Positions 3,165 to 62,778 of a DNA stretch of 64,000 nt are shown here, piece by piece. The stretch lies in IMG/VR virus record IMGVR_UViG_3300028591_000018; one strand, given 5' to 3'. Position 1 is the stretch's first letter. Each line of letters starts with the position of its first letter. The stretch is from an uncultured virus (IMG/VR IMGVR_UViG_3300028591_000018). Its lineage: Duplodnaviria > Heunggongvirae > Uroviricota > Caudoviricetes. A model generated the notes under the pieces. That model saw only the letters and a program-made list of their open reading frames with translations. It ran no database searches and was not told where the DNA came from. The position numbers were made by a program, and so were the translations under genes.

Positions 3165-3222
3165 TAAAAAATTAAAACGACTTGAAAATCCCGCGAAATT
3201 GCAGAAATTTCAAGCCGTTTCT
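3165..3222 (-). terminator. Intrinsic terminator after the endolysin
   Basis: AAACGGCTTGAAA...TTTCAAGTCGTTT stem followed by a T-rich tract on the minus strand. Confidence 0.55.
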
Positions 3223-7037: not shown

Positions 7038-9296
7038 TTATTCACGTTCACAGACAAGACGCTGCAGACCGAAGACCTTTGTGACCTTCGCACCGTTCTT
7101 GGTAGTGATCACACGGATGGTCTGAGAATCCGGGTTCGAGATACGGCCAACCCAGGTCATGTCGGAATCCAGAGTGACCGGGCCGCTCTTACCGCCAACG
7201 ATCTCTACAGTGGTCGTAGAACCGGTCTCAGTATCGAAGGACAAAGCAAGATAGTTACCGCTCTGTTCTCTCACATTATCACTGAATCCGGTGTAATCTT
7301 CAACATAGTGCAGAGTACCGGAAATATAATCGTCATTGACATTCACGTTAGACTGAAGATCAGAAACAGACTTCCCAAGAAGCTGTTCATCAGGATCAAC
7401 AGCATCAACAGTAAGGGTCAGACCATTGCCGACATAAAATTCCAGAGCAACTGCACCAAACGGAACAGTCATCGCACCGGAGCAGCGGGTTTCGATCAGA
7501 TACTTCTGAGCATTGAAGTCAATATCGAAATCATCGAACATATTCACAGAACCACCCTGATCGGCGCCGACATTATAGTCTTCAAGATTGACATAAATAC
7601 CTGCCAGAACCAGTTCATTATTGCTGCTGTCATAGCGGGACTTACCTTCCATTACCGGAACAGTCACGATTTCCTTGCAGCGCAGAACCTGAGCAAGTTT
7701 GTCAACAGATTCATAAATGAAGCGGCCATTCAGATCTTCCAGCATCAGCATGGCAGTAAGCATGTCTTCAGTGGTAAACATGGTCGGATTACCGGAGCCC
7801 TTATAAAGCTTTCGGGATTTGACACAGCCCTTAATGAAAGCTTTCGCCTTCTGATCATCAGTGGCATTTGCGGGAATCGAAACAGGATACTTCACTGTGA
7901 ACAGATCAGCATCTTTCCAGATCGGGCGAATACACTGTTCATTGATTTTATCCTCAGAAGAAGAAAGACGGCCATCACCGATCAGATATGCACGGGCAAG
8001 TTCTTCGTCCAGCATCTGGCGCATTTCTTTCTTCATCCAGGCAACCACATCGAAATCAGTAATATCAATCTGATCATCACGATCGATCTTCTGTTTCTTA
8101 TAAACAGTGGTCGGATTTGTAGCCCGGCGGAGCAGACTGAAGACTTCGTCCTTCTTCAGATTACCCTTCATATAACCCCGGGCACGAGCTTCGTCAGCAG
8201 TGATATCCGCCATCAGAGACTTTACACGGCTGAAAGGTGTGTGATGCACTCCACCCATAACCTTCTGAACCCAATTATCTTCACGCTTGATGAAAATCGG
8301 TTCATTGGTAATATTTCGATCATCCGGGAACAGATAATCAATGTTATCAATACCATGGGCAAGGAAAGCATCCTTCAGGCTGCCGCCACGGCGGGCATCT
8401 TCAAAAATCTCTTCCATATCGCTATGAGAGAGAACATTATCATACTCATTACCCCATTCATCTTCAAAAACGTTATGTTTCATATCTTCGTCATCACCGC
8501 CATTCTGTTCGTCTGCATAGCTAGCACCATCGCGAAGTGCAGCACCAATCAAAGCTTGAAGTACTGCAGTCTGTTCATCATCAAAAGTATCCAAAATATC
8601 CTGTACAGTTCTACCTGCCATATTTTCTTCATCTCCTTCGTTATTACTGTGCTTCATTTCGTCATCTTCATCCTCTTTCTCTTCACCTTCATCGGAGTTG
8701 CCGATGTTATCATGAAGAGCCTGGCCAATGAGTGCGTAAACCACAGCTTTCTGTTTGTCAGTCAGTGTATTAAAAACATCGCCGACAGTTTCTTCTTTAT
8801 TGTTTTTGGAAGATTTGTCAGCGTGTTCAAGGCCGAATTCGATTTCTTCACCACTATAAATAATGGCTTCTTCATCGTCTTCGCCTTCACTATGAGCCAT
8901 AACGGTATCAATAAATGCCCCGGGATTTGCGCCGGCAAGGACAAGAGAAACTTCACGGATCGCACCATGAAGAACATTTGCACCCTGCTGTTTCAGTTTA
9001 TTGGCGTAAATTGAGAGAGCAGAAACATCACCGTGTTCAACCAGCATTTTTGCATTGCGGCCGGACTCAGTATCATTAAATTTGCAGTATGCATAAACAC
9101 CCTGATCACGATTCTCAAGCAGCGCATGCCCAAGAACATTTTCAGGTTCGTTATGCTGGTGGTTCCATACCAACGGAACGGTCATTCCATCGTTGTCACG
9201 GAAAGCATCACGCAAAATAACGCGGCCATCCGAGCAGCGAAGATTGTTCCGAGTAGCCCACCCTGAAAAATCATAGGTTTCTGACATACTCGTCAC
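7038..9296 (-). CDS. Prohead protease-scaffold-major capsid fusion with C-terminal extension
   Basis: N-terminal HK97-type protease (VPLVWNH, LSIYA, IREVSLVLAGANPGA), acidic linker, HK97-fold capsid region, beta-rich C-terminal tail. Confidence 0.88.
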   Translation of the reverse strand: MTSMSETYDFSGWATRNNLRCSDGRVILRDAFRDNDGMTVPLVWNHQHNEPENVLGHALLENRDQGVYAYCKFNDTESGRNAKMLVEHGDVSALSIYANKLKQQGANVLHGAIREVSLVLAGANPGAFIDTVMAHSEGEDDEEAIIYSGEEIEFGLEHADKSSKNNKEETVGDVFNTLTDKQKAVVYALIGQALHDNIGNSDEGEEKEDEDDEMKHSNNEGDEENMAGRTVQDILDTFDDEQTAVLQALIGAALRDGASYADEQNGGDDEDMKHNVFEDEWGNEYDNVLSHSDMEEIFEDARRGGSLKDAFLAHGIDNIDYLFPDDRNITNEPIFIKREDNWVQKVMGGVHHTPFSRVKSLMADITADEARARGYMKGNLKKDEVFSLLRRATNPTTVYKKQKIDRDDQIDITDFDVVAWMKKEMRQMLDEELARAYLIGDGRLSSSEDKINEQCIRPIWKDADLFTVKYPVSIPANATDDQKAKAFIKGCVKSRKLYKGSGNPTMFTTEDMLTAMLMLEDLNGRFIYESVDKLAQVLRCKEIVTVPVMEGKSRYDSSNNELVLAGIYVNLEDYNVGADQGGSVNMFDDFDIDFNAQKYLIETRCSGAMTVPFGAVALEFYVGNGLTLTVDAVDPDEQLLGKSVSDLQSNVNVNDDYISGTLHYVEDYTGFSDNVREQSGNYLALSFDTETGSTTTVEIVGGKSGPVTLDSDMTWVGRISNPDSQTIRVITTKNGAKVTKVFGLQRLVCERE

Positions 9297-12043: not shown

Positions 12044-12898
12044 TTAAACTTTAACACCAATTTTCTCGAAAAATTTACTAACTTTATCGTCAAGACCCAT
12101 CTTATCTAAAAATATCGAACAGGCTCTTGCAACATTCATTTGAGTAGTTTGAATAATACTATTAATGCAAGTTCCAATACCATCACTGCCTTCTAAATTA
12201 CAATCTATATATTTAAATAAAGCATCATCTGCTTCTTTATCACTATATTTATCAAGATGGTTAACTAAATCACTTCCTTTTGGCATATATGTAATTCTAT
12301 TCGCTATATATTTATCATAACTTTTTTCAAAGTATGATTTAGCATACTTTTTTAATTCAAAATTTGTTTTTGCTTTTAATTTTCTTATTTTTTGATTGAT
12401 CTTATAATCAATGCCATCAATATCCCTATATGGTCTTCTATATGGAGCTCGCATTGCAAATGGTTTTTCACCTTCTACCCACTTATGAGATCTTTCATTT
12501 TTAGCATATACGTATTCGAAATTATCATTTAATCCTTGATATTTATTCTGAACTTGATCTGCTTTGCTATTAGGTCGTGATCGGTGTTTGTCATTTGAAG
12601 GCCCGAAATATTCATTCTGTTTAGAGTTATACTCGATTTCATCCTTAAATTCTTTACTGACCGAAGGTGTATTTCCTTTAATGCCCTTAATATTATTTTG
12701 TGATCGCTTTTTAGAAAAATCATTAGATTTAACTTTTTCTCGACCTCCATTTTCAAGATATCTTAATTTACCAAGTCGAGTTAAAGATCCATCTTTATAT
12801 TGGTACAATCTAACCCCGTTTTTAGAACCAGGGGTCCGATAATGTATTAAATACTCTTTCATTAATATATTCCCTCCCCCTATCATTTTATTATGCAT
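12044..12898 (-). CDS. Basic head-module protein with degenerate HxG/DGSLT motif
   Basis: YLIHYRTPGSKNGVRLYQYKDGSLTRLG; the true start may be at MMKEYL. Confidence 0.7.
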   Translation of the reverse strand: MHNKMIGGGNILMKEYLIHYRTPGSKNGVRLYQYKDGSLTRLGKLRYLENGGREKVKSNDFSKKRSQNNIKGIKGNTPSVSKEFKDEIEYNSKQNEYFGPSNDKHRSRPNSKADQVQNKYQGLNDNFEYVYAKNERSHKWVEGEKPFAMRAPYRRPYRDIDGIDYKINQKIRKLKAKTNFELKKYAKSYFEKSYDKYIANRITYMPKGSDLVNHLDKYSDKEADDALFKYIDCNLEGSDGIGTCINSIIQTTQMNVARACSIFLDKMGLDDKVSKFFEKIGVKV

Positions 12899-13718
12899 AA
12901 AATTCTTTTATAAATTTATCTATCAGAGCATCATGCTGGTCTTTCATTTGTTTATCTTTTTCACGATAATTTTGTCCTGATACTCTTGCTAAATAGCCGT
13001 TATATGAGTTATAAGCGACTGCATCATTACCATAAATCCTCTTTACTAATTCACCATCTTTTTTTACATATTTTTCTATGTCTTTTGAGCTACTTGTGTA
13101 TTTAGTTTTACCATTTACATCTTGATGATCTTTATTAAATTCAGCTTCATGCTTTTTCATATAATTAGTTTCACCTAATGCATACCCCAATCCACTAGTA
13201 GCTGCACCGATTGTAGTTGGTATGAGAATTTTATTTCCAGCTTTAGCTTGAGCATATAGCATTCCGACATCTGCGGCTACACCTATGGCGCCCAATGGAA
13301 TAGCGATCATATTTCCAGCAAAAGCTTTTCCTTTGCCATAATTTGTAGTTGAAATATAACTCTCCTGATATTCAGCAATTTTCTTTTGAACATCCGGAGG
13401 CATACTTAAAAAATCCTCGGTAAATTTTTGTTGATCTGAAATCTGTTTATCAATAATTTTTTTACCGATTTCTAATTTTTCAAATTCTTTTTTTTCTTTT
13501 TCGCTTTTATCTTTTTTACCTTTCAAATAGTTATAACGTTCAGAATAAGAAATTCTTTTCATCTCTTTAACAGTATTAACACCGTATCTCTCTCTTCCTT
13601 CCGGAGTTAAGCTGCCGTCCGGATTTTGAAAACGGCGTATGCCCCAATGCATTCCAAGAATACCCCAATGTTTTAGTTCATCATTTTCATAAATATCCGT
13701 ATGAACGAGATCTAACAA
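12891..13718 (-). CDS. Head-module protein with HWG..WG/DGSLT motif
   Basis: ELKHWGILGMHWGIRRFQNPDGSLTPEGRERYG; Gly/Ala-rich hydrophobic hairpin. Confidence 0.75.
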   Translation of the reverse strand: MLDLVHTDIYENDELKHWGILGMHWGIRRFQNPDGSLTPEGRERYGVNTVKEMKRISYSERYNYLKGKKDKSEKEKKEFEKLEIGKKIIDKQISDQQKFTEDFLSMPPDVQKKIAEYQESYISTTNYGKGKAFAGNMIAIPLGAIGVAADVGMLYAQAKAGNKILIPTTIGAATSGLGYALGETNYMKKHEAEFNKDHQDVNGKTKYTSSSKDIEKYVKKDGELVKRIYGNDAVAYNSYNGYLARVSGQNYREKDKQMKDQHDALIDKFIKEFYA

Positions 13719-15466: not shown

Positions 15467-16312
15467 TTATTTTTTGCCTTTGTTCTTCTTTGGATTAGTA
15501 ATTTGCGGTTTTGGAATGCCTTTTACATAAGCTCTATTACCTGTAATATCAGACAATCTATCTAACTCGAGAAGCATGTCTTCGTATTGTGCTGTATCAA
15601 AATTGTCCGGATCTTCTTCAATTTTTTGCGCTAAGAAATCAGATATTGCGTCCCGTGTTTTGACTAAGTCGTTTATTTGTGATTCATAATTATTTAAGTT
15701 TCTTAGATGCTGAGTATCTTCAATCATTTTCTCATCATTATTTTTTCGTTCATAATCGCTGGTTTTTTTTCGCTCATCATTTAGTTCATTAATGACCTGT
15801 TGCTTTTTTAATTCTTGTTTTAGTTTGTCCAGTTCTTCTTTTGCATTGTCTTTTTTCTGAAGATGAGCGCCTGTTACGCTATTTAAATATGCAATTGCAA
15901 GATCACTGTCACTTCCTCCGAACACAGAATAGCCAAGCATTCCCAATCCAAATTGGGTATTTCTTGCCATAAAATTTTCAAATGGTACACCAAAAACATT
16001 TTTTAAAAATCTAGGTATAGCATGCTCTTTTTTGGGAGGCGTGGTATTTCTTTTAAACTGATTCTCTTGATATATGTAATTGTTTCTTGCCTGATAATAG
16101 TCTGCTTCTTTTTGGTAACGTTTAGTCATTTTATATAGTTCTTCATCGGATAAACTACCAGCATCACTTATACCTTTAGTATTTCTGGCAGGACCGACGC
16201 CATAACGTATTCTTCCTGCAGGGGTTAGAGAACCATCGGGGTTTTGATAATTACGAACACCCCATTTCATTCCAAAAATACCCCAATGTTTTAATTCATC
16301 CTCAATATCCAT
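15467..16312 (-). CDS. Head-module protein with HWG..KWG/DGSLT motif
   Basis: ELKHWGIFGMKWGVRNYQNPDGSLTPAGRIRYG; LSDEEL motif; coiled-coil C-terminus. Confidence 0.75.
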   Translation of the reverse strand: MDIEDELKHWGIFGMKWGVRNYQNPDGSLTPAGRIRYGVGPARNTKGISDAGSLSDEELYKMTKRYQKEADYYQARNNYIYQENQFKRNTTPPKKEHAIPRFLKNVFGVPFENFMARNTQFGLGMLGYSVFGGSDSDLAIAYLNSVTGAHLQKKDNAKEELDKLKQELKKQQVINELNDERKKTSDYERKNNDEKMIEDTQHLRNLNNYESQINDLVKTRDAISDFLAQKIEEDPDNFDTAQYEDMLLELDRLSDITGNRAYVKGIPKPQITNPKKNKGKK

Positions 16313-18596: not shown

Positions 18597-18751
18597 CCGC
18601 TTTGCTCCTTCCTTGAACCACTTAAAAGGCACTTTTTCAAAGGCTCAAAGCAAAAAAGAAAGGTCAAATATAAAATTCGCGGAAACAAATGAACCTTGAG
18701 CCCTTGTAAAAGCCTTCTAAGCGATTCTAAAATATAAAACATACCCCAAAA

Positions 18752-18825
18752 TATCCCCCCGGAGAATTTTCGGAGACCCCCGCGATTGGGGGAGGGGGTG
18801 GGTTTTGGGCGCCACTCCCCCCGGT
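18752..18825. other. GC-rich G/C-run element, candidate cos/packaging site
   Basis: Intergenic G- and C-runs directly upstream of the terS-HNH module. Confidence 0.45.
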
Positions 18826-18827
18826 GC

Positions 18828-19172
18828 TTATCTATTATCTTTCCAGTTATCGCGGGAAATTAGTTTGTCGAAGTCTTCTTCGGCATTATTTTCGTTATTT
18901 TCTATTTCATTTTCTTCATATTCTTGTTTTTTGACGTAGAGTTTGGTGTAGATGTTACGAAAGTCGTAGCGGATGATCTCGTCAATCGCTCTTTCGATCT
19001 CTCTTTCACGCTCTATGTCACTCATTGACGGACTGAGCCGTGCGATCCGATCGAGATAGGCACAGCTATAGTAGCCGTGATCGATGTCGAAGTCCAGCCA
19101 ATCGCTGAACTGCGTATCGGGATTGAACGGATTGTCAAATGTAGTCAAGTAGCAAGTCTGATCTTTCTCCAT
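18828..19172 (-). CDS. Hypothetical protein downstream of the RNAP
   Basis: LTTFDNPFNP..WLDFD..GYYSCAYL; AGAAAGGAG upstream. Confidence 0.7.
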   Translation of the reverse strand: MEKDQTCYLTTFDNPFNPDTQFSDWLDFDIDHGYYSCAYLDRIARLSPSMSDIEREREIERAIDEIIRYDFRNIYTKLYVKKQEYEENEIENNENNAEEDFDKLISRDNWKDNR

Positions 19173-19188: not shown

Positions 19189-21987
19189 CTAAATATTGCC
19201 GTTCTTCTGTTCTCTAACGTAATAAAGGACAGTAGAAACCGGAATATTCAAAGATTCTGCGATCTCGGCATTAGAATAACCGGAACGGCGCAGAGAAAAT
19301 AATCTCGTGATTTTTGTATTGCTGAGCCCTTTTTCGGACCGTGGCGTAGCATACTCACGGACGGTATTCGTATCAGTAGCATCTAATATTTGCTTCAGCA
19401 GCGAATCAGATATTGCGCCGGCCTGAATAGCGGTCCACTCTTTCGGCGTAATATTAATCTTATAGCGCTGGGCACCTACTTCAAGCCGTGCAGCAGTCAG
19501 AAATTGCTGAGCGTACTTTCCGCTCTGCTTCTTGTCATCCCGAAGCTCCGGGTTCTCTTTGTAAAGTGCCTGCATGCGCACATTGGCACGGCGCTGGGCT
19601 TCACGTTCACGGGGGGCATTCAATCTCGAGCTGCGCAATTTTTCTTTAAGTGAATCCACTTCATTCTTAAAAACTTTCGCGGCAGACGGACTGTACTCCA
19701 GGTTCGGTGTATTGTACTTGTACTCTTTGCGAGCCTGATTGGCAAGCGCCTTGAGCTGTGATGCGTAACGGGCATAGAGCAACTCGGTCGGGTTCTGCTT
19801 TTCAGAGACAAGTTCATAAGGATCATCGATCTCGAGCATGCGGAAGCTCTCCTGAGTGCGGGTCTTCTCTCGGCCCTTCTCATCAATATAGTGGGCATCA
19901 AAGGCTTCTTTCCAAACCTTCTTGCCTGTCTCCTCATCAACATCAAATTCTCCGCGCCGCTTGGCAACACGTTCAGGGCTCTTGGCACGGGTCACGATAG
20001 TACCGGATCCATAAACCCAGCGACCATCCTCATTGTAGTGGCCCTGATATTTGTCCTTAAGCTCCTGGATCTTGTTCTCTTCTTCAGACAGCTTGTAGTC
20101 AAGCTTGTGCTTCTTGGCGTCAATGACAACCATTGAATGCTTCACTGCACGGGCAACCTCATCATCCGGAGCACCGGCAAGGGTCATGTCCATAATAAGA
20201 TTCGTGATCTTGCCCATCTCCATGTCTGTACGCTGCATGTACTTCATACCGGGCCGTTCAGGATATGAGACTTCAGGATCGAACCCTTCAAGCTCTTTCA
20301 AATATTGTCGATGAGAGACCTGCACTTTAGAGGATAATGGAATGACCATGACTGTGTCACCATCAAAATCAGCGCCGGACAGCTGCTTGGCTGTCTCTGC
20401 ATTAATACCGACTGCATCGGTCGGATTTTTAGTCAGCATAGAAATTCCTTCACGGTTCTTGTTGTTCACCGTAAGGACCGGGATCTCAAAAATTCCTCCA
20501 TGAGGGTAACGGACAAGCGCAACCTTCTCGCCATCCTTAAAGTTAGGAGCATAAATTTGGTCGTTCTTCATGCTCTTGATTGGAATAATGACCTGATAGC
20601 GCTGACGCGGAAGAGCTGCCGCATCCAGATGAACTGCAGTCGAGTCACAGTCTTCAGCAAAGGTTTCTAATAATCGGCGCTTGACGGTCGGATTTGTTAA
20701 ATTACAAATATCCTCGTACTCGGCCATCTTGTCTGCAATTGACAAATCAAGCTGATTTTTTACCAGCTTAATATTCTGCTTGGACAAAAATTGGGAAGGC
20801 AAAGATTTTGACCAGTCATTCCAGTCCCCTTCATCAGCACGTTTATTAATAAGCGATAATTTCCGTTCACCGGTCTTTGAGTCAATATAGTGGCTCTGGC
20901 CTTTTGCAGAAATATAGGAACCGAAGGGATTCATCGGATCATCAGTCTTAATATCCTTAAACGGGTCTTCGCCTTTCTCACGAGATTTTCGGGAATTGTA
21001 AATAATGTCATACCCATCCGGAATATCGTCGGAATATACTGCCATCCCTTTCATATATTTCTTTCCGTCCACTAAAATTCGGACTTGAGAATATCGGGAA
21101 CCGCCAAGTGATAAATCCTCCACACCGGGGCGAATTTGAATAAGGCCGTCACGCTGGTCACCGCCGTCTTCAATATATTTGACTAAAATACGTTTGCTGT
21201 CCATAGAAGCAGGATATTCAAATTTGTCAAATTTTTCTCCGCTTCCATCCTGAGAAGCATATTCAAATAATGGATTAATTTCTCCATACTGATATGCCTG
21301 ATTCTTCGGGGATCCGGGAGGACATAAAACCTTCAATGTCGTCCGCTGCCCATGTTCATTTGTAACCTGAGGCATGGAACCTACACGAACTTCATATCCT
21401 TCTTTCTTTAAAATATCGACAGCCTGTGTAAGCTTCTCTTTGGAAATATTCAATTCCCGATTTACTTCCGCGCCCACGTCGACCGGACCTTTTTCATCAA
21501 CTACTTTTTTCAAAAAATCAGCTGTCTGCTGCGCTTTATTCGCACGGCGCTGACGCTGCTTGTCAATAATTGAACGAAATGTTGATTCCGGAATACCCAT
21601 ACGCCGAGCTGCCTCGGTTTGAGATACTCCGTCTTTAATTAATTGGTTGGCCCATTGAATTCTGTATGCAGAAATATCGTTGTTTGATCTGCGGATCTCT
21701 GCACGAAGTTCAGATGTAGTAGAATATCCGCACTTCTTCGCGATCTCGATCTCAGAATATCCCTTGCGGCGCATCTTGCGCACACGGTTCAAAAAATCGA
21801 GTTCATGCTGAAAAGGAACTTCACCGGATCCCCAAGGGTATCGCCCTGAGTGTCTCTTTGTTCCGTAATGGGCGAAAAAATCCTTGTCTGCTTCCGGTGC
21901 GGCAACCGAAAGTAAAATATCCTGTGCAATGTCATTGTCAAGATTCATTGCCAGTGTAAACAAAATATTCTTTGCGATGCCGTTCAT
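19189..21987 (-). CDS. Single-chain two-barrel RNA polymerase (YonO/QDE-1-like) with HTH domains
   Basis: GADFDGD (DFDGD at 20356-20370), RYPH, DGLIQI/SQVR/MKG, VVIDAKK; HTH-like segments at both ends. Confidence 0.8.
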   Translation of the reverse strand: MNGIAKNILFTLAMNLDNDIAQDILLSVAAPEADKDFFAHYGTKRHSGRYPWGSGEVPFQHELDFLNRVRKMRRKGYSEIEIAKKCGYSTTSELRAEIRRSNNDISAYRIQWANQLIKDGVSQTEAARRMGIPESTFRSIIDKQRQRRANKAQQTADFLKKVVDEKGPVDVGAEVNRELNISKEKLTQAVDILKKEGYEVRVGSMPQVTNEHGQRTTLKVLCPPGSPKNQAYQYGEINPLFEYASQDGSGEKFDKFEYPASMDSKRILVKYIEDGGDQRDGLIQIRPGVEDLSLGGSRYSQVRILVDGKKYMKGMAVYSDDIPDGYDIIYNSRKSREKGEDPFKDIKTDDPMNPFGSYISAKGQSHYIDSKTGERKLSLINKRADEGDWNDWSKSLPSQFLSKQNIKLVKNQLDLSIADKMAEYEDICNLTNPTVKRRLLETFAEDCDSTAVHLDAAALPRQRYQVIIPIKSMKNDQIYAPNFKDGEKVALVRYPHGGIFEIPVLTVNNKNREGISMLTKNPTDAVGINAETAKQLSGADFDGDTVMVIPLSSKVQVSHRQYLKELEGFDPEVSYPERPGMKYMQRTDMEMGKITNLIMDMTLAGAPDDEVARAVKHSMVVIDAKKHKLDYKLSEEENKIQELKDKYQGHYNEDGRWVYGSGTIVTRAKSPERVAKRRGEFDVDEETGKKVWKEAFDAHYIDEKGREKTRTQESFRMLEIDDPYELVSEKQNPTELLYARYASQLKALANQARKEYKYNTPNLEYSPSAAKVFKNEVDSLKEKLRSSRLNAPREREAQRRANVRMQALYKENPELRDDKKQSGKYAQQFLTAARLEVGAQRYKINITPKEWTAIQAGAISDSLLKQILDATDTNTVREYATPRSEKGLSNTKITRLFSLRRSGYSNAEIAESLNIPVSTVLYYVREQKNGNI

Positions 21988-21993
21988 AAAAAA

Positions 21994-22557
21994 TTATGCC
22001 TCCATTTCCTTCAGCTGGATGTCTCTTAAAATTTTGTCGAAACTCTTGATCTTATCCATGATCTCAGAAATACGATCCGGATCCGGAGTTTCATAAATAA
22101 TCTCGTTGGACTGATAAATTCTCAGCTCAGTTTCAATCTCATGCGGATCAAAGTGATACTCGAGACAAAATAGCGCATTATAAATATGAAGCTGCTCCAT
22201 ATGAGCAGGGATGGTCCCCGTCTTCAGATCATGAATGCGCAATAAATTCTTTCGATAGCTGATCGCATCAGCAGTACCGAAGCAATTCTCTGAAAAATAC
22301 AGGATCTGCTCGGAATGCATCTTATACCCGATCGCATCATTGACAAACATATTTAATGTCAAATTCGACTTGGGCAGCCGCTGATTCAGCTTAATACACT
22401 GTGAAGCAAAATCATGCAGCATGGTTCCGCGTTCCTTTGCAAGATCATTCTGATAGGTTTCAATGAGTTTCTCGGGATCGTAATTGATCCAATGATACTT
22501 GGACGCACCTAAAAATGCGTGCCTACCCTCAAGGTTGGAATGATTGTTGAAGTTCAT
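21994..22557 (-). CDS. PD-(D/E)XK nuclease-like protein (DUF2800/Cas4-like)
   Basis: RGTMLH, FGTADAI, IHDLKTG, QLHIY. Confidence 0.75.
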   Translation of the reverse strand: MNFNNHSNLEGRHAFLGASKYHWINYDPEKLIETYQNDLAKERGTMLHDFASQCIKLNQRLPKSNLTLNMFVNDAIGYKMHSEQILYFSENCFGTADAISYRKNLLRIHDLKTGTIPAHMEQLHIYNALFCLEYHFDPHEIETELRIYQSNEIIYETPDPDRISEIMDKIKSFDKILRDIQLKEMEA

Positions 22558-22819
22558 AAAAAACCTCTTCCTTATTCTCAGGGCATATGAAACGAGAAAA
22601 TGACATGCGGTTCAGCATGTCAACGTAATATTCCTGGTTTGGCTGTTTGTGCTCATGCGCAGACTTTTTAGTTTCAAGCATTGCCCAGTGCTTTCCATAG
22701 AGCACCAAAACATCAGGAATGCCTTGCAAATAGTTCGCATCATTCTTCAAAACAACACAACCCGGAAAGCGCTCTTTCAATTCATCGATCACGCGCTTTT
22801 GAAATATTCTTTCAAGCAT
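22529..22819 (-). CDS. VRR-NUC domain nuclease
   Basis: ERIFQ..GIPDVLVL..LETK..QPNQ; start at MLERIF with GAAAGGA RBS. Confidence 0.85.
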   Translation of the reverse strand: MLERIFQKRVIDELKERFPGCVVLKNDANYLQGIPDVLVLYGKHWAMLETKKSAHEHKQPNQEYYVDMLNRMSFSRFICPENKEEVFYELQQSFQP

Positions 22820-22836
22820 TGTTTGTTTCCTTTCGA

Positions 22837-23000
22837 TTGTCTGAATATTAGAGCTGTCCTGGCCCACCTTCTATTTCCGCCATAGTAAAGGAGAAAAAAT
22901 GTAAAGGAGATTGGCCCATGAAAAATAGAAACCTATGAAGAAAGGGAGGATCTTCATTGGAAAATAGAAAGTGGGATAGGCCGGCCCTAATCTCAGACAA
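22837..23000 (-). ncRNA. Structured leader/ncRNA with anti-SD segments
   Basis: Nested inverted repeats (TTGTCTGA/TCAGACAA, ATTAGGGC/GCTCTAAT, CCCACTTTCTATTT/AAATAGAAGGTGGG) enclosing three CTCC(C)TTT tracts. Confidence 0.55.
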
Positions 23001-23070
23001 AAAAATAAGAGGCCATGTACTGATCATGGCTTCTTAAAAACAAAAGAGAGAAGAAACTATCTTCTTCTCT

Positions 23071-23098
23071 CTATAAAAGGGCATGTTTTTTATGCGAA
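23071..23098 (-). promoter_or_regulatory. Phage promoter motif copy 1
   Basis: TTCGCA-TAAAAAACATGCCC-TTTTAT-A. Confidence 0.7.
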
Positions 23099-23109
23099 GT
23101 CAGAAAATA

Positions 23110-23406: not shown

Positions 23407-23634
23407 GTTCGGTTTGGCTCCTTTCGAAATATTAATGGTCTATCCATTATACCCGAAAGCAGCTCCCATTAACCAAATAGAAAATATTCGTCCCTACGAC
23501 CTTATCAACCTTATTGATCTTATTGATCTCATTGGTCTTATTGACCTTATAGGTTTTTTCAACCTTCCAAATCGGTTGAAAAATACCCATCTTCAAACCC
23601 CTTAAAATCAGCATGAAAACCCTCCAAAAACCGC

Positions 23635-23915
23635 TTCTGCCCATTTGCCCACTTTTTTTTCTATATTACTATATATATTACATTTTTCATTTTTTAATTT
23701 CATTAATAAAAAAGGTGGGCAAATGGGCAGAAAGCCCTTTTTTGATCAATTTTACGAGTAAATTTGCCAAAAATCTCTGCCCACTTTTGATTTTAAAAGT
23801 GGGCAATTGCCCACTTTTTTTGGGCAGAAAGCAATTTTTTCAACTTCCAAAACCCAAAAACCCAAAATAAAAGTGGGCAGAAGCCCATTTTTGGCCACAA
23901 AAGTGGGCAGAAAAA
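23635..23915. repeat. TGCCCACTTT/AAAGTGGGCA repeat cluster with AT-rich core; probable replication origin
   Basis: About 10 (T)GCCCA / TGGGC(A) units in both orientations; a ~24-bp inverted repeat flanks a ~50-bp AT-rich spacer. Confidence 0.65.
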
Positions 23916-25765: not shown

Positions 25766-25776
25766 AGTTATCCTCC

Positions 25777-25804
25777 TTATTAAAGGAGCTGTAAATTATA
25801 CGAA
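25777..25804 (-). promoter_or_regulatory. Phage promoter motif copy 2
   Basis: TTCGTA-TAATTTACAGCTCC-TTTAAT-AAGGAGG. Confidence 0.7.
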
Positions 25805-26039
25805 AAACAGGCACTAATGCCTGTAATACTCATAACCCTTTTTATCATCATCTTCCTTTTCAACTTCCTCAATAATCTGCCAGATCTTATTCTCCGGCAT
25901 GTCCAGTGTCTCAGCAATCTCGCTGACCAAATATCCTTCATCGAGAAACTTGTAAATCTTAAGAATCAGTTGATCCTTTTGCATAATAAACTCCTATGAT
26001 AAAAAATAAGAAAAAAAATAAAGGGCTTGCGCCCTCTTC

Positions 26040-35756: not shown

Positions 35757-35804
35757 TTTTCCTCCTGGAGAGAATTTAGTTTTAGACTCTTCGTCTATTT
35801 CTCT

Positions 35805-35832
35805 CCATAAAAGAGGTTGCGGATATCGCGAT
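35805..35832 (-). promoter_or_regulatory. Phage promoter motif copy 8
   Basis: ATCGCG-ATATCCGCAACCTC-TTTTAT-G. Confidence 0.7.
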
Positions 35833-35901
35833 CGAAAAAAAAGAGGAGATGTTAATAGCAACATCTCCTTTAGAATGCAAGGCCATGCTTTTATCGCGTT
35901 T

Positions 35902-45938: not shown

Positions 45939-48900
45939 TCAAACAGGTTCCGGAACATCCCGGAACCATTCGAAATCACCATACTGTGAAATATCAATTA
46001 TCGCTTCATCCACCAATCGGTCATAATAAGACCGGTCTATGAATGCATCATAGTTGCCAAAATCCCGGATATCTTCTGATTCCATCCAGAGATAATCTTT
46101 GGCTCCTGCTGCGGAATCGTATTTCACATTTCCGTCTTTATCAATAGCTTCACGAACGAGCCGTCCGCCACCCATTCCCGGTTTAACCGGACAAAATTGC
46201 CCGACACGACCAACGAATTGATAGTCATGTTCTCCTTCCGGAAGCTTTTCATTAAAATCAAGAACCAGACAGCTGGTTACCTGTTTGGTTTCGCACATGT
46301 CTTCGAACTCAATCGGCGCTTTAGCAAAGAGTGTTTTAAAGACATACGGAACCTGAAATTCTGTACCGGTTGCAGTCCAGCCTTTTTTCCAGGCATTTTT
46401 TTTATCTGTCGGATCCCAATTTTTATCATGAGCAATGTAAACAGCATCATTCACCAGACAGAATCGGTCAAACTCTGCTTCTGTTTCAAAGTTGTAACCG
46501 AACTCATGCCCAAAAGCTTTTACAAAGTCAAATATCTTTTGATCCCAATTCGGAATCTTGATTGAATCAGTTTTTATGTGCGCCACCTGATAGCCGCGCT
46601 TTTGCACTTCCTGCTTCAGCAGTGTCATGAACAATGCGCCGCGTTTGGCCACAATATTATCCTTATTCCGCAGATCCCGGAATGGATTCTCAAACCTGGC
46701 ACTGGTCAAACCATACACCGAGTTGATTGCAATCTTCAAAGCATTTGCCAGCCCCTTTGCCTGATCTGCATTCGTCAGCCACTTCGCCAGTTTTCCATCC
46801 ATCATCTTTGCAGCTTCTGAAAAGTCACCGGTTTTAATGGCTTTCTTTACCGCTACACGAATATCCACAAGGTCATAGAACTTTCGGCTGTACTTTGGCC
46901 CAAAGAGTCTCTCAGCCCATATGCTGTGGGGGTGCATAGAAGTTACATCTGCGTCCCAGACATTTCCGTACATACCGGGCTCAGAATATACTCGTCCACC
47001 CTCTCCGATCTCCTGATCAAGATAAGTTGATTTCCCAGCATCAAACTTATACCCGGGAAAGAAGGGCAGGATCGAGTATCCAGAGGGTAAGGATCCTCCA
47101 TTGTAAGTTTGATAGGTTGGTAATCCGCTGCTGTCGAACACGTGAAATTCATAATCTTCTCCAAATAGTTCCCTGTACTCCGAATATCTTTCCGGACCGA
47201 CCGGTTCAGCCAGATTGCGGTAGTTAAACTGACTTTGCGGGTTCCGGTCCTGACCGAATATAATTCGGGTTGTCAGACTGTTGGTTGTGGCGTTAGGTGT
47301 CATTCCGGCAATATCTGCCAAAATCATCCGTGCCAGAAAATCGTCCTGACGATCCTTACTGAAAAATACCGCCTCGGTTGCGATCACATCATTATCACAA
47401 TAAAGAGCAACTTCCTCCCAACGATCCTTCGGAACCGGCTGATCCCAGGGAAGTGCCAGTTCTTTGTGATGGATTCCCAGATCGATTTCAAATTTTTTCA
47501 GGGATTGTTTTACACTGCTGAAGTCATAAATATCTGTATAGGAAACTTCATAAGCATCTCTGAAAAATGCGTTCTTATCTTTATCGATAATCCCTTTGGA
47601 AACTTCATAGATCTGTTCAAGATTCTTACCAAGTGATCGTGCATACAAAATATGATTGTCATATCTCCGACAATTGAAACCGACAAGATGAAAATTGGTC
47701 ATCAATTTGTAAACTTCTTCCGGATCCGGGTTGAACATCCGTACCGGAGGATGGTCAGGGCCCGGATACTTCCAGCAGATCAGCAAAAGATTCGGAAAGA
47801 CCTCAACATCGAAAAATATCAATGGGAGATTCTCATTCTGTTCTTCTGCAGTCGGTTCAATATAATCATCGGAGCATAGTTTCATCTTTCCGACAAGCTT
47901 GATTGCTTCCCTGGCATGGTGAGTGGACTGTGCAGCAAATGAATAAATTGCATCATGCATCTTCCGCACATCATAAGACAAACCGTCATTGTAGGCGCGT
48001 TCCAAATCGTTGTAGATCATGTTGACACAGTTATATGTGCCATTGACATTTTCTTTATTCAGGTTTCGCTCGATCGCCTTGATCAGTGCTTTGTCGTTAA
48101 TAAACGACTTAAAATTAATCACTTTCTTTTTCTCTTTCTTCAAAGGGAGACCTGAAGAAATCGTGGCTACCGGCAGGTCATTGCATTTTGTCAGCATTCT
48201 CCGGAGAGAACTTCCGCCATTAAACACCTTTACTTCAATGTGATCCGCGTAATTGATCTGCAGCTCGGTCGGATCACCCTGATAAATATAATGCAGGTGG
48301 ATTCCGGCACCGGACTTACTTAATTCTGCGTAAGTCGGAGGCCATTTTGAAGCTGCTTCCAGATTCTTTTCAAAACATTTGTTGCCGTTTTCATCCGGAA
48401 TATCAAAGTCAATGACAATGTGCTCCAGCGGCACTTTTACATAATGCAATTTTCGTGTGTTGATGCCTGAAAGTTTTGTAAAACAATTATCCCAGGCTTT
48501 CAGCGGAGTTCCTTCTGAGTTTGCATACTGAGCAGGAGCTTTAGCCATGAGAATATCAAACAGGGAATCTTCACAGTTAAATGTCAGCCATTTATCGTCC
48601 TTTTTATCTCCATTTTGAATGTCTTTCTTTTTCCAGGTCTCTTCGAATTTTTCGGTTTTGAATCCACTGAACCAACTGCGGATCCGTGTTCCGTCTTCGA
48701 GTGTGACCCGATCTTTATAGTCTTCAAAGTAGTTTTTCAGTTCTTCTTTGAAAGCTCTTTGGGAAAACGGATAAACTACTTTAGCTTCCTCGCAGAATGT
48801 TTTATACATGTCATACGCAGCTTTCAGTGACACTCCGTTTTCTTTTTTAAACACAAAATAGCTGTCCGAGACAAAGTTGAAAAAATCATTTGACGCGTCC

Positions 48901-49937
48901 AGCATTTTCAACGGAACATACTCTTCATAGCATTGAGGATCGTCCAGATAAACCTGCTGACAATGCCATGCGATCGCCCCAAGTTCAAAGTCGATCATTT
49001 TCATCAAAATGTCGTATTCTCTTTTTGGAATCTTATGCCCGGTCGGTGTAACATCGATCAAACGTCTCAGCAAGCCTGATTTCGCATCGGTTATCCGCAC
49101 CGGTTTGTTAGTTCCCATAAATAGAAATGAGTTGAAGCGCATCGAATACTGTGGTTTATTTTTTTCATTTACCAGTAATGTCTCGTGAGAGACAATAGAG
49201 TTCAAACGGGTGTTGTCTTCAATATGAGACAGATCGCCATCATGCTGGATCGCAACCAATGGGTTGGACTTGAACGGTTCCAGTGCAAAACTGGCATTCG
49301 CCGATCCAAGTGCTTTCGCGTCAAACACACTACAATATCCTTCAAAGAGTTTTTCAATGATATGAATTACAGTGGACTTGCCTGATGCCGGAGGTCCGTA
49401 AAACACCAGAAATTTCTGGATGTTTTTCGAATCCCCGCTAACAACCGCACCGATCGCCCATTCGATCTTGTGTCTTTCTTCTTCAGAATATAAAACAGAA
49501 AGAAGCCGGTCCCATGCTTCTATGCTGCCTTCCTCAAGCGGATAGCTCAGTGTTTTGCTGGCGTAATCCCGTTTTTTGGTTTTCTGATTGGAAAATATCA
49601 ATTTCTCGTCCAGCTGATGATAATTTTCCCGCATCTGCTCTTTACAATAGTGATGGAACGTATCAATCATCTTGTTATTGCCCATTTTCAGATGCTTGAT
49701 TTTCGGTTTGCGGTCCCACTTACCGCGATGCGCTTCATAATAGTCATCCATCTCACGATCAATAATATCAATCAGATCCTGTTCGACGGTTGACCACAGG
49801 TTTTTTTCTTCAACCCATACTGCGTAAAAATCTTTCGCACGAACCATTAAGTCTGAGGTCCTGTTATTGACAATGAACATTGGGAAAATCTCCGTTCCTT
49901 TTTTTGTTTCTTCATCGGAGATCGTAACAAAGTCCAT
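45939..49937 (-). CDS. SF3 helicase-primase-family B DNA polymerase fusion
   Basis: GPPASGKST and MGTN; IDFD and SKSGAGIHLHY; Exo motifs FDVE, GFN..YD, YCDND; PolB motifs DVTSMHP, KIAINSVYG, KTDS. Confidence 0.85.
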   Translation of the reverse strand: MDFVTISDEETKKGTEIFPMFIVNNRTSDLMVRAKDFYAVWVEEKNLWSTVEQDLIDIIDREMDDYYEAHRGKWDRKPKIKHLKMGNNKMIDTFHHYCKEQMRENYHQLDEKLIFSNQKTKKRDYASKTLSYPLEEGSIEAWDRLLSVLYSEEERHKIEWAIGAVVSGDSKNIQKFLVFYGPPASGKSTVIHIIEKLFEGYCSVFDAKALGSANASFALEPFKSNPLVAIQHDGDLSHIEDNTRLNSIVSHETLLVNEKNKPQYSMRFNSFLFMGTNKPVRITDAKSGLLRRLIDVTPTGHKIPKREYDILMKMIDFELGAIAWHCQQVYLDDPQCYEEYVPLKMLDASNDFFNFVSDSYFVFKKENGVSLKAAYDMYKTFCEEAKVVYPFSQRAFKEELKNYFEDYKDRVTLEDGTRIRSWFSGFKTEKFEETWKKKDIQNGDKKDDKWLTFNCEDSLFDILMAKAPAQYANSEGTPLKAWDNCFTKLSGINTRKLHYVKVPLEHIVIDFDIPDENGNKCFEKNLEAASKWPPTYAELSKSGAGIHLHYIYQGDPTELQINYADHIEVKVFNGGSSLRRMLTKCNDLPVATISSGLPLKKEKKKVINFKSFINDKALIKAIERNLNKENVNGTYNCVNMIYNDLERAYNDGLSYDVRKMHDAIYSFAAQSTHHAREAIKLVGKMKLCSDDYIEPTAEEQNENLPLIFFDVEVFPNLLLICWKYPGPDHPPVRMFNPDPEEVYKLMTNFHLVGFNCRRYDNHILYARSLGKNLEQIYEVSKGIIDKDKNAFFRDAYEVSYTDIYDFSSVKQSLKKFEIDLGIHHKELALPWDQPVPKDRWEEVALYCDNDVIATEAVFFSKDRQDDFLARMILADIAGMTPNATTNSLTTRIIFGQDRNPQSQFNYRNLAEPVGPERYSEYRELFGEDYEFHVFDSSGLPTYQTYNGGSLPSGYSILPFFPGYKFDAGKSTYLDQEIGEGGRVYSEPGMYGNVWDADVTSMHPHSIWAERLFGPKYSRKFYDLVDIRVAVKKAIKTGDFSEAAKMMDGKLAKWLTNADQAKGLANALKIAINSVYGLTSARFENPFRDLRNKDNIVAKRGALFMTLLKQEVQKRGYQVAHIKTDSIKIPNWDQKIFDFVKAFGHEFGYNFETEAEFDRFCLVNDAVYIAHDKNWDPTDKKNAWKKGWTATGTEFQVPYVFKTLFAKAPIEFEDMCETKQVTSCLVLDFNEKLPEGEHDYQFVGRVGQFCPVKPGMGGGRLVREAIDKDGNVKYDSAAGAKDYLWMESEDIRDFGNYDAFIDRSYYDRLVDEAIIDISQYGDFEWFRDVPEPV

Positions 49938-56477: not shown

Positions 56478-56529
56478 ATTTTTTTTTCTCCTTTTAACAA
56501 AAAATTAAGAGCAGATCATCTATGTCTGC

Positions 56530-56557
56530 TCAATAAAGGAGTTGTAAATTTCGCGAT
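56530..56557 (-). promoter_or_regulatory. Phage promoter motif copy 10, with GAGCAG hairpin at 56509-56531
   Basis: ATCGCG-AAATTTACAACTCC-TTTATT-GAGCAG. Confidence 0.72.
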
Positions 56558-56877
56558 CAGTTTGAGTCTGATTCAAAAACCCGAATTACTTTATAATCAA
56601 AAAGTTTTGCTCCGAGTTCATCAAGTTCATCGGCGGTCAGATTCTTTCCCCGCTTTTCAAACGGGCATGCATAATCAATAGAAGTCATGTACAGTGCGTA
56701 CTGAGCAATATGTGCCGGAAGGGCTCCGATCACATGTTTGCCTTTAATATCATCAATGGTAACGCTGGCTTTTACTTCTCCGGTAATTCCGCGGCGTTTC
56801 AGCCACTCTACAGTACCCTCATGACGGGTCACAATAAGGGTTTCAATTTTAGGGGTTTGCGTATCTGCAACGGTCAT
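56557..56877 (-). CDS. Csx16 (Cas_VVA1548)-like protein
   Basis: LIVTRHEGTVEWLKRRG...VIGALPAHIA...RGKNLTADEL...GAKL matches the Csx16 pattern (S/T)RHxG..EW / VIGxLPxHxA. Confidence 0.75.
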   Translation of the reverse strand: MTVADTQTPKIETLIVTRHEGTVEWLKRRGITGEVKASVTIDDIKGKHVIGALPAHIAQYALYMTSIDYACPFEKRGKNLTADELDELGAKLFDYKVIRVFESDSN

Positions 56878-58065: not shown

Positions 58066-58112
58066 TTTTCTCCTTTTTTACAAAAAATAAAGAGCAGATC
58101 ATCCGTGTCTGC

Positions 58113-58140
58113 TCTTTAAAGGCGTTGATTTTCTCGCGCT
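58113..58140 (-). promoter_or_regulatory. Phage promoter motif copy 11, with GAGCAG hairpin at 58092-58114
   Basis: AGCGCG-AGAAAATCAACGCC-TTTAAA-GAGCAG. Confidence 0.65.
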
Positions 58141-58494
58141 CAGTTTTCGTATTTAATTTTTACATCAAATACAGCGCTCAGTGAAAAATCAAGATTTTTC
58201 AGGGTATCCTGATCTTTCAACTCCAGAAGCAACTCTGCTGACCCATCGGAATGCACAATTTTATAAAGTGTTCCGATCGGCTCTGGTTTTACAGATTTTT
58301 TGATCAATCTGCCAATACACCAGCCGATAGCTCCTCCGATCGCAAACCAGATCGGAATCGGCACCGCTATAATGAAATTCTCAATCTCCTGAATCATGAA
58401 AACTCCGTATAAAAACTTTTTTCATTTTTCCTCCCCCGGGAATTTTTGCATTAAGAATATACCATTTTGAATTGTCACCTGAGTACGGAACTTT

Positions 58495-59559: not shown

Positions 59560-59658
59560 AAAAAAAATAAAAGAAGTTGAACCGAATCGAACGGTTCCAG
59601 GCGGGCAGACAAGACCCGTCGCCCACTCACAAACTTTCGTTTGCTTTAACTTCTTCTC
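59560..59658 (-). ncRNA. tRNA-like small RNA (non-canonical)
   Basis: 8-bp closing stem, GAAA-tetraloop arm, central arm and GAACCG-TTCGATT-CGGTTC T-arm; own promoter (copy 12, 59657-59684) and T tract. Confidence 0.65.
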
Positions 59659-59683
59659 ATTAAAGTCCATGTTAATATTGCGT

Positions 59684-59826
59684 AAAAAATAGCAGGAGAT
59701 GTGTTAACTATAAACTCTACCTGTTGTGCAGCTATCTCACAACAGCAACTTTATAGCAACGGATATCTCCTGCTTAATTTAATGCCAGCTCATTTTTTCT
59801 CCTTTCTTTAAGTGAACTAGCTCCTA
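59684..59826 (-). ncRNA. Small RNA with SD and MSWH minigene (59779-59793)
   Basis: Promoter copy 13 at 59823-59850; AAAGGAG-AAAAA-ATG AGC TGG CAT TAA; long AGCAGGAGAT/ATCTCCTGCT terminator stem. Confidence 0.65.
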
Positions 59827-61348: not shown

Positions 61349-61438
61349 TTTATCCTCCTTTAGCTCTTTCTTCATTAGAGGATCTGTTCTTATCGCGAAA
61401 AAAATAAGAGCCCTTGTGGGCTCCATTTTGATTCGGTT

Positions 61439-62655: not shown

Positions 62656-62778
62656 ATTTTTTTTCTCCTTTTTAAAAATAAAGAGCAGATCATTTATGTC
62701 TGCTCAATAAAGGCGTTGTAAAAACCGCGATTATAAATTGTAGGAGTATAATAACTTCTACAAGGAGAAAAAATATCA

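Follow-up and report, generated by a model that had tools for sequence, protein, structure and literature searches.

A phage 1706-family protein as a putative single-chain RNA polymerase with built-in HTH modules and a repeated promoter-like motif

How might a phage RNA polymerase made of one chain find its promoters? The question is raised by a minus-strand open reading frame (ORF) in 64,000 nucleotides of DNA from an uncultured virus of the Caudoviricetes (IMG/VR record IMGVR_UViG_3300028591_000018), a stretch that we analyzed whole and call the window. The original prediction held that this ORF encodes a two-barrel RNA polymerase with helix-turn-helix (HTH) domains at both ends, easily mis-annotated as an HTH protein, and that these domains replace a sigma factor in reading a promoter repeated 20 times. 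Our follow-up places the protein in a family that is known from computational description, that of phage 1706, and links the repeat to this family across phages of two bacterial phyla. With moderate confidence, we read the protein as a 1706-family single-chain RNA polymerase whose own HTHs read the repeated promoter; the fold, catalysis, DNA as template, the HTH-promoter contact and the start site are what we infer. Four of the papers used below (PMC2919709, PMC5467207, PMC11536984 and PMC13587820) and one preprint (bioRxiv 10.1101/842583) are cited from excerpts.

An HTH-flanked protein with the motifs of two-barrel polymerases

The gene and the relevant parts of its product are as follows.

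19189..21987, minus strand: putative single-chain two-barrel RNA polymerase gene (P0001), HTH-flanked; ORF with ATG start, 932 aa
21808..21870, minus strand: N-terminal box HYGTKRHSGRYPWGSGEVPFQ, residues 40-60; nearly invariant in an 87-sequence alignment and in 14 relatives including 1706 and Circum
21688..21792, minus strand: first N-terminal HTH-like segment, residues 66-100; PHROG 664 'DNA binding protein' at residues 67-157, E 2e-12
21538..21675, minus strand: second N-terminal HTH, residues 105-150; HTH_23 35.3 bits against a cut-off of 24.6 (residues 115-144), HTH_28 30 against 25
21007..21162, minus strand: putative beta-like barrel motifs, residues 276-327; D280-G, R286, Q301-x-R303, K313-G314, D327; invariant columns
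20308..20583, minus strand: putative beta-prime-like barrel, residues 469-560; R493-Y-P495-H496 and metal loop D540-F-D542-G-D544; invariant columns
20107..20130, minus strand: VVIDAKKH motif, residues 620-627; D623, K626 and H627 invariant; inside the stretch matched by the Pfam family RdRP
19210..19332, minus strand: C-terminal sigma-70 region-4-type HTH, residues 886-926; Sigma70_r4_2 (PF08281) 32.6 bits against 25.7 (residues 897-920), also HTH_24 and HTH_38

Every motif string on which the polymerase call had been based (GADFDGD, RYPH, the DG..I / Q.R / KG block and VVIDAKK) is present in the ORF and includes invariant columns. GADFDGD occupies residues 538-544 (nt 20356-20376) and RYPH residues 493-496 (nt 20500-20511), and the block reads D280-G281 ... 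Q301-x-R303 ... K313-G314, inside nt 21007-21162. Columns were judged in an alignment of 87 sequences, the window protein and 86 of its 150 best representative relatives (42-53% identical to it); the 64 listed rows that were omitted had mostly matched in at least two stretches, with large insertions. Invariant throughout are R286, Q301, R303, K313, G314, D327, R493, P495, H496, D524, S537-G-A-D540, D542-G-D544, D623, K626 and H627, and because of this invariance the motifs are not chance look-alikes. The two-barrel signature motifs span about residues 270-630, the central part of the protein, and their conservation over 87 sequences, within a family of thousands of clusters, argues for a maintained, putative active site.

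The D-x-D-G-D metal-binding loop is present, with D540, D542, G543 and D544 all invariant. Upstream of it, the invariant R493 and P495 align to R492 and P494 of YonO, the RNA polymerase of SPbeta; the invariant Arg and Pro at this place are given as the equivalents of R446 and P448 of Rpb1, and eight invariant residues as common to all two-barrel polymerases (PMC2919709). D280, R303 and K313 are invariant or nearly so and are paired with the YonO block in a statistically weak alignment only; if that residue-by-residue assignment holds, they are candidate equivalents of D837, K979 and K987 of Rpb2, the Asp and the two basic residues expected in the second barrel.

HTH-like segments had been proposed for both ends of the chain, and they are indeed built in and conserved (residues 66-100, 105-150 and 886-926). 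When family members were scanned with Pfam one by one (48 sequences, a subset of the 87), HTH_23 was matched by 47 and Sigma70_r4_2 by 45. The first segment has sub-threshold Pfam matches only and is conserved in relatives; at the C-terminus, HTH_38 scores 27.7 bits at residues 886-925 against a Pfam cut-off of 27. The Sigma70_r4_2 score marks a predicted module of that HTH type and does not imply sigma-factor action.

Ahead of the HTHs lies the N-terminal box, whose invariant pattern is HYGxxRxSGRYPWGSG and for which Pfam and the ESM Atlas gave no match. Two other minus-strand ORFs (15467-16312 and 12891-13718), which flank the large terminase gene, both begin LKHWGIxGMKWGxRxYQNPDGS (Pfam DUF7211), and these LKHWGIxGMKWG openings are reminiscent of the box. 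Openings of the LKHWGI type also begin gp7 and gp9 of Arthrobacter phage Circum and orf7 of 1706, which is annotated 'structural protein', and on viral contig G017 the polymerase-type box itself occurs in both small terminase-flanking ORFs.

A known family under many labels

Against PHROG 4291 ('RNA-dependent RNA polymerase'), the window protein matched at E = 0 with 1083 bits, residues 32-926 covering profile positions 6-907 of 909. On this match the protein belongs over its full length to PHROG 4291, the YonO-like 'phage 1706' family. Relatives occur in 250 cultured-phage records, and in 249 the match extends over 80% or more of the query, with Arthrobacter (95), Gordonia (55), Streptomyces (54), Lactococcus (13) and others as hosts. 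At E <= 1e-3 the family comprises 2205 representative clusters, and at the stricter E <= 1e-30 still 833; a search with only the catalytic core scored 7998 candidates, every one of them a relative at E <= 1e-5. Six relatives found through the promoter-like motif described below (G007, G027, G033, G045, G058 and G062) match the family profile in two pieces, at about positions 1-704 and 614-893. Both pieces lie in one open frame of 1004-1046 aa, and therefore reflect extra sequence inserted where the core would join the C-terminal part.

Annotation as an HTH protein, the predicted error, is the commonest label among the 40 phage records listed (21 records), the others reading DNA-binding (2), hypothetical (10), 'RNA-dependent RNA polymerase' (5) and structural protein (1, phage 1706), with one unannotated. 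NCBIfam has no model that matches the window protein and none that matches YonO, and the Pfam families above threshold on the window protein are HTH families only. The Pfam RNA-dependent RNA polymerase (RdRP) family, PF05183, is touched at E <= 0.01 by 20 of the 48 scanned members, at best with 7.3e-6. In the ESM Atlas, the core retrieved one RdRP-named cluster (0.89), which we take as a lead only.

The 1706 protein was listed in 2010 among five YonO-like two-barrel families (PMC2919709). A later preprint, on a phage group that extends over Actinobacteria and Firmicutes, treats the family as that group's signature gene and reports an HHpred value of 95.68% to PF05183, HTH domains at both ends and a DxDGD loop; in its excerpted text, the words 'promoter' and 'transcription' do not appear (bioRxiv 10.1101/842583). 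Genome papers of 2024 and 2026 merely repeat the RdRP label in the parts cited (PMC11536984, PMC13587820), and the authors of the latter took it to denote an RNA-virus enzyme or function (PMC13587820). No bench test of the PHROG 4291 family was found in the literature searched. The two-barrel assignment of the 1706 family and its HTHs at both ends are thus already in print, as computational prediction only: the call of a single-chain two-barrel RNA polymerase is partly supported, by the family label and the invariant signature residues, and is not new.

A strand-specific promoter-like repeat

The window contains a repeat of about 30 bp with the consensus TTCGCR-N7-CA-N4-CTtTAaT-GAG. A 36-nt position weight matrix (PWM), derived from direct-repeat families in intergenic DNA, placed 19 sites of 25-44 bits on the gene strand and none on the opposite one, and 20 shuffles gave 0 or 1; a compact IUPAC pattern gave 17 against 0 by strand, with a shuffle mean of 0.05. 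A loose regular expression added one variant, which brings the copies to the predicted 20, all on the gene strand. The copies are listed here together with the two genes that lie between the operon copy and the polymerase gene.

21994..22557, minus strand: Cas4-like exonuclease gene, directly upstream of the polymerase gene; PHROG 3953, E 5e-80
22529..22867, minus strand: endonuclease gene, first of the endonuclease-exonuclease-polymerase operon; PHROG 93
23067..23102, minus strand: promoter-like copy, operon copy (...ACATGCCCTTTTATAGAGAG), 28.4 bits; ahead of the endonuclease gene, some 1.1 kb upstream of the polymerase gene
25773..25808, minus strand: promoter-like copy, 33.9 bits
26398..26433, minus strand: promoter-like copy, 38.9 bits
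34298..34333, minus strand: promoter-like copy, 31.6 bits
35110..35145, minus strand: promoter-like copy, 33.8 bits
35273..35308, minus strand: promoter-like copy, 34.4 bits
35493..35528, minus strand: promoter-like copy, 36.5 bits, then hairpin GAGCAGA-N9-TCTGCTC
35801..35836, minus strand: promoter-like copy, 36.4 bits
53978..54013, minus strand: promoter-like copy, 32.2 bits, then hairpin and T-run
56526..56561, minus strand: promoter-like copy, 42.7 bits, then hairpin and T-run
58109..58144, minus strand: promoter-like copy, 33.4 bits, then hairpin and T-run
59653..59688, minus strand: promoter-like copy, 35.7 bits
59949..59984, minus strand: promoter-like copy, 36.4 bits
60066..60101, minus strand: promoter-like copy, 28.4 bits
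61128..61163, minus strand: promoter-like copy, best-scoring, 43.5 bits, then hairpin and T-run
61368..61403, minus strand: promoter-like copy, 36.3 bits
61797..61832, minus strand: promoter-like copy, weakest, 25.3 bits
62368..62403, minus strand: promoter-like copy, 32.6 bits
62700..62735, minus strand: promoter-like copy, 35.3 bits, then hairpin and T-run, adjoining the integrase gene
3171..3195, minus strand: twentieth, variant copy in the tail/lysis region, spacer longer by one base; loose regular expression only, no PWM match

The 19 PWM sites span positions 23067-62735 and lie before early and middle genes, with none in the late region at 3.2-23 kb. A ribosome-binding site (RBS) and the start codon of an ORF of at least 30 codons follow 13-59 nt after 13 of the 19 copies. 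Directly after six (at 62700, 61128, 58109, 56526, 53978 and 35493) comes the hairpin GAGCAGA-N9-TCTGCTC, and after five of those six a T-run. The hairpin starts at the conserved GAG and would sit at the extreme 5' end of the transcript, an odd placement for a terminator-like element; it might stabilize the mRNA or stop the host polymerase only.

The operon copy at 23067-23102 and the copies at positions 8865-9074 of 18 loci among the relatives L001-L025 form a subclass of their own (...ACATGCCCTTTTAT[A/G]GAG). These operon copies are closer between phages than to the early copies of the same genome, and hence hint at two promoter classes.

Two further candidates were rejected. A strand-specific 10-mer with 22 copies, AAATATCAAT, was set aside as a promoter, being mostly inside coding sequence and in varied contexts. 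Near-identical sequence in two metatranscriptome runs of one study was rejected as evidence of transcription, these being assembled contigs only; they give no start sites, since the contigs end at the repeated hairpins, which are places where an assembly breaks off.

Motif and polymerase gene occur together across phages

In 26 viral-contig relatives with polymerases 43-83% identical, the PWM matched 78 times on the polymerase strand and 4 times on the other, some loci being near-duplicates. A copy lies 0.93-1.14 kb upstream of the gene in 18 of the 19 relatives that have 10 kb of upstream DNA. Five near-complete genomes among the 26 gave 52 matches to the IUPAC pattern on the polymerase strand against 1 (reversed-pattern control, 2), and in a complete 90 kb relative (G001) all 13 copies are upstream of the gene and none after it.

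The association extends to cultured phages. We examined five of the 250 records, Streptomyces phage DrGrey, Gordonia phage Untouchable, Rhodococcus phage ReqiPepy6, Lactococcus phage 1706 and Circum, with the core ACA-N4-CTATAAT-R (at most one mismatch) and found 61 forward against 2 reverse matches; controls gave 8 and 7, mostly from the AT-rich 1706. The five share the architecture TCGC(A/G)-N7-CA-N4-CTATAAT-GAGA, and the actinophage copies continue into a conserved leader that contains the RBS. Inverted repeats bracketing the actinophage promoters were considered as well and dropped as not general, reaching at least 7 nt in only 3 of 10 DrGrey copies.

We then reversed the test and scanned 2.9 million viral contigs by the motif alone. 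The 80 rows listed, of at least 141 stretches, came from 62 contigs, and a polymerase (family match at E <= 1e-10) is encoded in 44 of these, including 21 of the 23 that are at least 90% complete. The reversed pattern gave 31 single matches, with a polymerase in 1 of 27 searchable contigs and in 0 of 8 near-complete ones (Fisher p = 1e-9 for all contigs, 6e-6 for near-complete). A 3.6 Mb metagenome-assembled genome (MAG) of a Lachnospiraceae bacterium carrying a related prophage has the pattern at background, 10 matches against 12 in the control; its two consensus-like matches lie on one contig, presumed to be the prophage contig.

The window, which may lack about a quarter of the genome, has 93 other ORFs of at least 60 codons. 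In 82 of these Pfam detected neither a sigma factor nor a further HTH protein, and PHROG assigns the remaining 11 to head, tail, terminase, NrdD, dUTPase or DNA-polymerase families. A link between promoter and polymerase is absent from the literature searched, which did not take in the papers on 1706 (doi 10.1016/j.virol.2007.12.002) and ReqiPepy6 (PMC3020559).

Comparison with YonO and other polymerases

The cultured members of the family (1706 orf75, the 'putative RNA polymerase' of Faecalibacterium phage FP_oengus, and proteins of Arthrobacter, Streptomyces, Gordonia and Rhodococcus phages) resemble the window protein in the N-terminal box, two HTHs, core and C-terminal HTH, in the invariant motifs, in the promoter architecture and in the position as second-to-last gene before the genome end. 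The window protein is, however, only 34-45% identical to them and at most 54% to any representative cluster; it comes from an uncultured phage with an integrase nearby and closest relatives of about 90 kb, and its promoter mostly has T, not A, at the second position of the -10-like element.

YonO, encoded by the Bacillus prophage SPbeta, is the DNA-dependent RNA polymerase of the SPbeta late operon, which it transcribes from one start site; its promoter determinants and any need for extra factors were left open in the text cited (PMC5467207). It is likewise phage-encoded, a single chain and similar in size, its R-x-P-H and D-x-D-G-D blocks align with those of the window protein, both families touch PF05183, and in both the late genes lie directly downstream of the polymerase gene. 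Whereas YonO serves one late operon, the window has about 20 promoter-like copies before early and middle genes; YonO also has no Pfam match of any kind, hence no Pfam-detectable HTH.

Sequence comparison with hhalign put the kinship at a great distance. The family profile against the single YonO sequence gave nothing significant (probability 0.2%). Against a YonO-family alignment (24 of 120 listed relatives, 56-85% identical to the first sequence, itself 96% identical to SPbeta YonO), the sole profile-profile match joined residues 469-560 (VALVRYPH ... SGADFDGDTVMVI) to YonO 469-555 (LRSPH ... QFDNDGDKALVI), with E 0.014 and a probability of 3%. Core against core, the match was collinear over 338 columns with both blocks in order (E 0.0044, probability 7.8%) and paired the first block, SQVRIL...YMKGM, with YonO SFMVRL...WVKGL. 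Such a collinear match, although not statistically significant, is as would be expected of very distant two-barrel relatives. The proposed kinship with YonO therefore stands at the level of motifs and not at that of significant sequence similarity or of shared HTHs, and on these alignments the window protein appears to lie outside the YonO family proper, in a separate family with only the catalytic blocks in common.

PF05183, the sole curated profile that reaches the core of the window family, describes the eukaryotic QDE-1-type RdRPs (Neurospora, RNA silencing). These have invariant Asp, Arg, Lys and Pro positions in common with two-barrel families of this kind (PMC2919709). They copy RNA and are without HTHs, whereas the window family has HTHs, and the window protein gave no sequence match to QDE-1 in the PDB.

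In its manner of working, the nearest parallel would be the single-subunit RNA polymerase of the T7 type. There, one protein reads one long promoter, present in many same-strand copies and running into the transcript start, through the polymerase's own loops; its right-hand polymerase fold is unrelated and carries no fused HTH modules. The virion RNA polymerase gp66 of crAss-like phages is a much larger two-barrel, RdRP-like protein, for which we know of no reported HTH modules. Both it and the 1706 family would be virion-delivered, if the 'structural protein' label of 1706 orf75 reflects virion proteomics. A motif comparison in the preprint on the family is what brings up gp66 (bioRxiv 10.1101/842583).

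Genomic context

The window represents a siphovirus-type phage or prophage with nearly all genes on the minus strand. From the right, the order is integrase, small early genes, primase-polymerase fusion, NrdD, dUTPase, helicase, endonuclease, Cas4-like exonuclease and polymerase gene, followed by one small gene, a G/C-rich cos-like stretch, HNH endonuclease, terminase, portal, a protease-capsid fusion and tail genes.

18740..18830, strand not assigned: G/C-rich cos-like region, containing runs of G and of C; similar to the right genome ends of Circum and 1706
18828..19172, minus strand: small conserved gene after the polymerase gene, last before the cos-like region; PHROG 4303
45939-49937: primase-polymerase fusion; PHROG 4210 and primase PHROGs

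The order endonuclease-exonuclease-polymerase near the right genome end is kept in DrGrey, Untouchable, ReqiPepy6, Circum and 1706, and the small gene after the polymerase gene has the same position in the four actinophages and 1706. The stretch at 18740-18830 is, from its sequence, probably the cos site and virion genome end, which would therefore make the polymerase gene the second-to-last of the virion DNA.

The two closest viral-contig relatives, with polymerases 73% and 83% identical, lie on contigs of some 90 kb; one of these contigs carries direct terminal repeats. This is a gut phage, and host leads point to Lachnospiraceae: a 47%-identical copy occurs in a rumen MAG, and the name of one relative points to Pseudobutyrivibrio. 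The sole clearly real plus-strand gene (62779-63999, reaching the window edge) encodes a tyrosine integrase with an N-terminal zinc ribbon; given this integrase, the element may be temperate. Scans of the window for tRNAs and Rfam families gave no match.

Upstream of the polymerase operon, a non-coding stretch at 23647-23908 holds six exact copies of GCCCACTTTT in both orientations, with none elsewhere in the 64 kb. The 10-mer recurs as an inverted pair in the equivalent gap of Circum, and at least two copies of GCCCACTT are present in 10 of 19 viral-contig relatives, in most cases 0.7-2.3 kb before the gene (in L024, about 3 kb). The cluster could be an origin, or an operator for one HTH module. 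The same non-coding stretch has a short array of 9-base units (ATCAATAAG-like) at about 23495-23550.

Two observations concern the early region. One small minus-strand gene (56557-56877) matches Pfam Cas_VVA1548, 'putative CRISPR-associated protein', with 64 bits, which is unexpected in a phage early region, and three paralogous minus-strand genes stand in a row (51882-52829, 54016-54876 and 55150-55908; DUF6353 / PHROG 2152).

Which protein reads the promoter?

We propose that the HTH modules of the polymerase dock on the three-block promoter, whose 19-20 same-strand copies would serve the early and middle genes as well as the endonuclease-exonuclease-polymerase operon itself, and that RNA would start near the conserved GAG. 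Three HTH modules reading a three-block promoter is a plausible and the simplest reading, and the comparative evidence is strong as an association.

Several points weigh against this proposal. Because the phage lineage shares other core genes too, co-inheritance alone could explain why motif and gene go together, and an association at the level of lineages does not single out the polymerase as the reader of the motif. Between the HTH recognition helices and the promoter variants there was no clean co-variation. The hhalign links to YonO are statistically weak, and YonO, the sole tested relative in kind, serves a late operon (PMC5467207). Searches of the PDB by sequence and by profile returned HTH matches only and no polymerase. 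PF05183 scores 16.4 bits on the window protein (E 0.004, residues 532-632), under the gathering cut-off of 23.8, so that by the Pfam rule the protein is a distant relative only and not a member. Finally, the copies precede early genes and the polymerase's own operon, which creates a bootstrapping problem unless the enzyme is delivered by the virion or first made by the host polymerase.

A polymerase that reads early promoters must be present at the start of infection, and delivery in the virion would provide for this. The label 'structural protein' on 1706 orf75, known from the GenBank annotation alone and repeated in a note of the ReqiPepy6 record, hints at such delivery; both box-bearing proteins examined in phage 1706 are annotated 'structural', and the N-terminal box may be a virion-incorporation signal. 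In the boldest form of this idea, the polymerase is packed via its N-terminal HYG...WGSG box, injected, and alone fires about 20 early promoters without sigma or host polymerase, the hairpins and T-runs stopping the host enzyme only. We regard that full scheme as doubtful. If true, it would be a self-contained transcription system of one protein and one promoter, the promoter kept across Firmicutes and Actinobacteria phages.

Alternatively, the motif could be a host sigma-A promoter with phage-specific flanks that drives the early and middle genes, with the phage polymerase confined, as YonO is, to the late operon across cos and using another promoter there. Most relatives have a perfect TATAAT as their -10-like element, which weighs for the host enzyme and against our reading, and in Gordonia phage Vardy the TATAAT of a 50-bp motif present in five copies was read as a sigma-70 -10 box, with no RNA polymerase mentioned (PMC9671010). 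Moreover, the late genes follow the polymerase gene, where no copy of the motif is found except the variant at 3171-3195 (in G001, none after the gene). Yet the motif is unlike a host sigma-70 promoter, because the spacer from TTCGCG to the -10-like heptamer is 14 bp and the would-be -11 position is A in only 5 of the 19 window copies (T in 12, C in 2); none of the 19 has TTGACA at 16-18 bp from the -10-like element. Sigma-70-like sites around the polymerase gene are at chance level (31 against 26.3 +/- 5.2 expected from shuffles), and the pattern is at background in the host MAG. A host sigma factor also leaves unexplained why the TCGCR and CA blocks and GAGA are kept between phages of Firmicutes and Actinobacteria. 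Circum has 45% GC against 63% in its host (PMC5513430), and the gaps downstream of the gene showed no conserved candidate late promoter. Host recognition of the motif thus seems unlikely to us.

About equally improbable, in our judgment, is that the polymerase is real and its HTHs do another job, such as binding the GCCCACTTTT cluster, tethering the genome end or helping packaging, with promoter choice left to a separate small factor invisible to Pfam. In that cluster the operon has a second conserved element in the non-coding DNA close upstream of it, found also in Circum and 10 of 19 relatives; the lack of clean co-variation, the many small early-region ORFs without a known family (most of them) and the point about extra factors left open by the YonO authors (PMC5467207) fit this view too. 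But matching three HTH modules to three promoter blocks is simpler, none of the 82 ORFs scanned encodes another protein with a DNA-binding domain, and conservation within these genomes is lowest for the small early genes, whereas the promoter is kept across phyla.

We think it very unlikely that the enzyme acts on RNA, as the RdRP label has it, or as a replication primase. Pfam RdRP is the sole profile touched by the core, but that label comes from a eukaryotic family, and YonO, the phage enzyme of this type that has been assayed, depends on DNA (PMC5467207). HTHs of a DNA-binding type fused to the chain, and a conserved motif in the DNA before genes, are in keeping with transcription, and the phage has a primase-polymerase fusion of its own. 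Least credible of all is an inactive HTH regulator or structural protein with merely retained polymerase-like motifs, since every signature residue is invariant over 87 sequences in a family of thousands of clusters, for all that databases mostly give an HTH label and, for 1706 orf75, 'structural protein'.

Meaning of the finding

The window protein adds to a known, computationally described family, and the useful, apparently new part is the link between promoter and polymerase. Thousands of database entries carry the labels 'HTH domain protein', 'response regulator', 'hypothetical' or, misleadingly, 'RNA-dependent RNA polymerase', and these could be set right. If the polymerase works alone, 932 aa and a compact promoter make a possible orthogonal expression tool for Gram-positive bacteria. 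For the biology of these phages, how a minimal single-chain two-barrel RNA polymerase finds its promoters, a question left open for YonO (PMC5467207), gains a testable answer, namely built-in HTHs that would read a three-block promoter, about 30 bp long, that differs little between the phages of two bacterial phyla.

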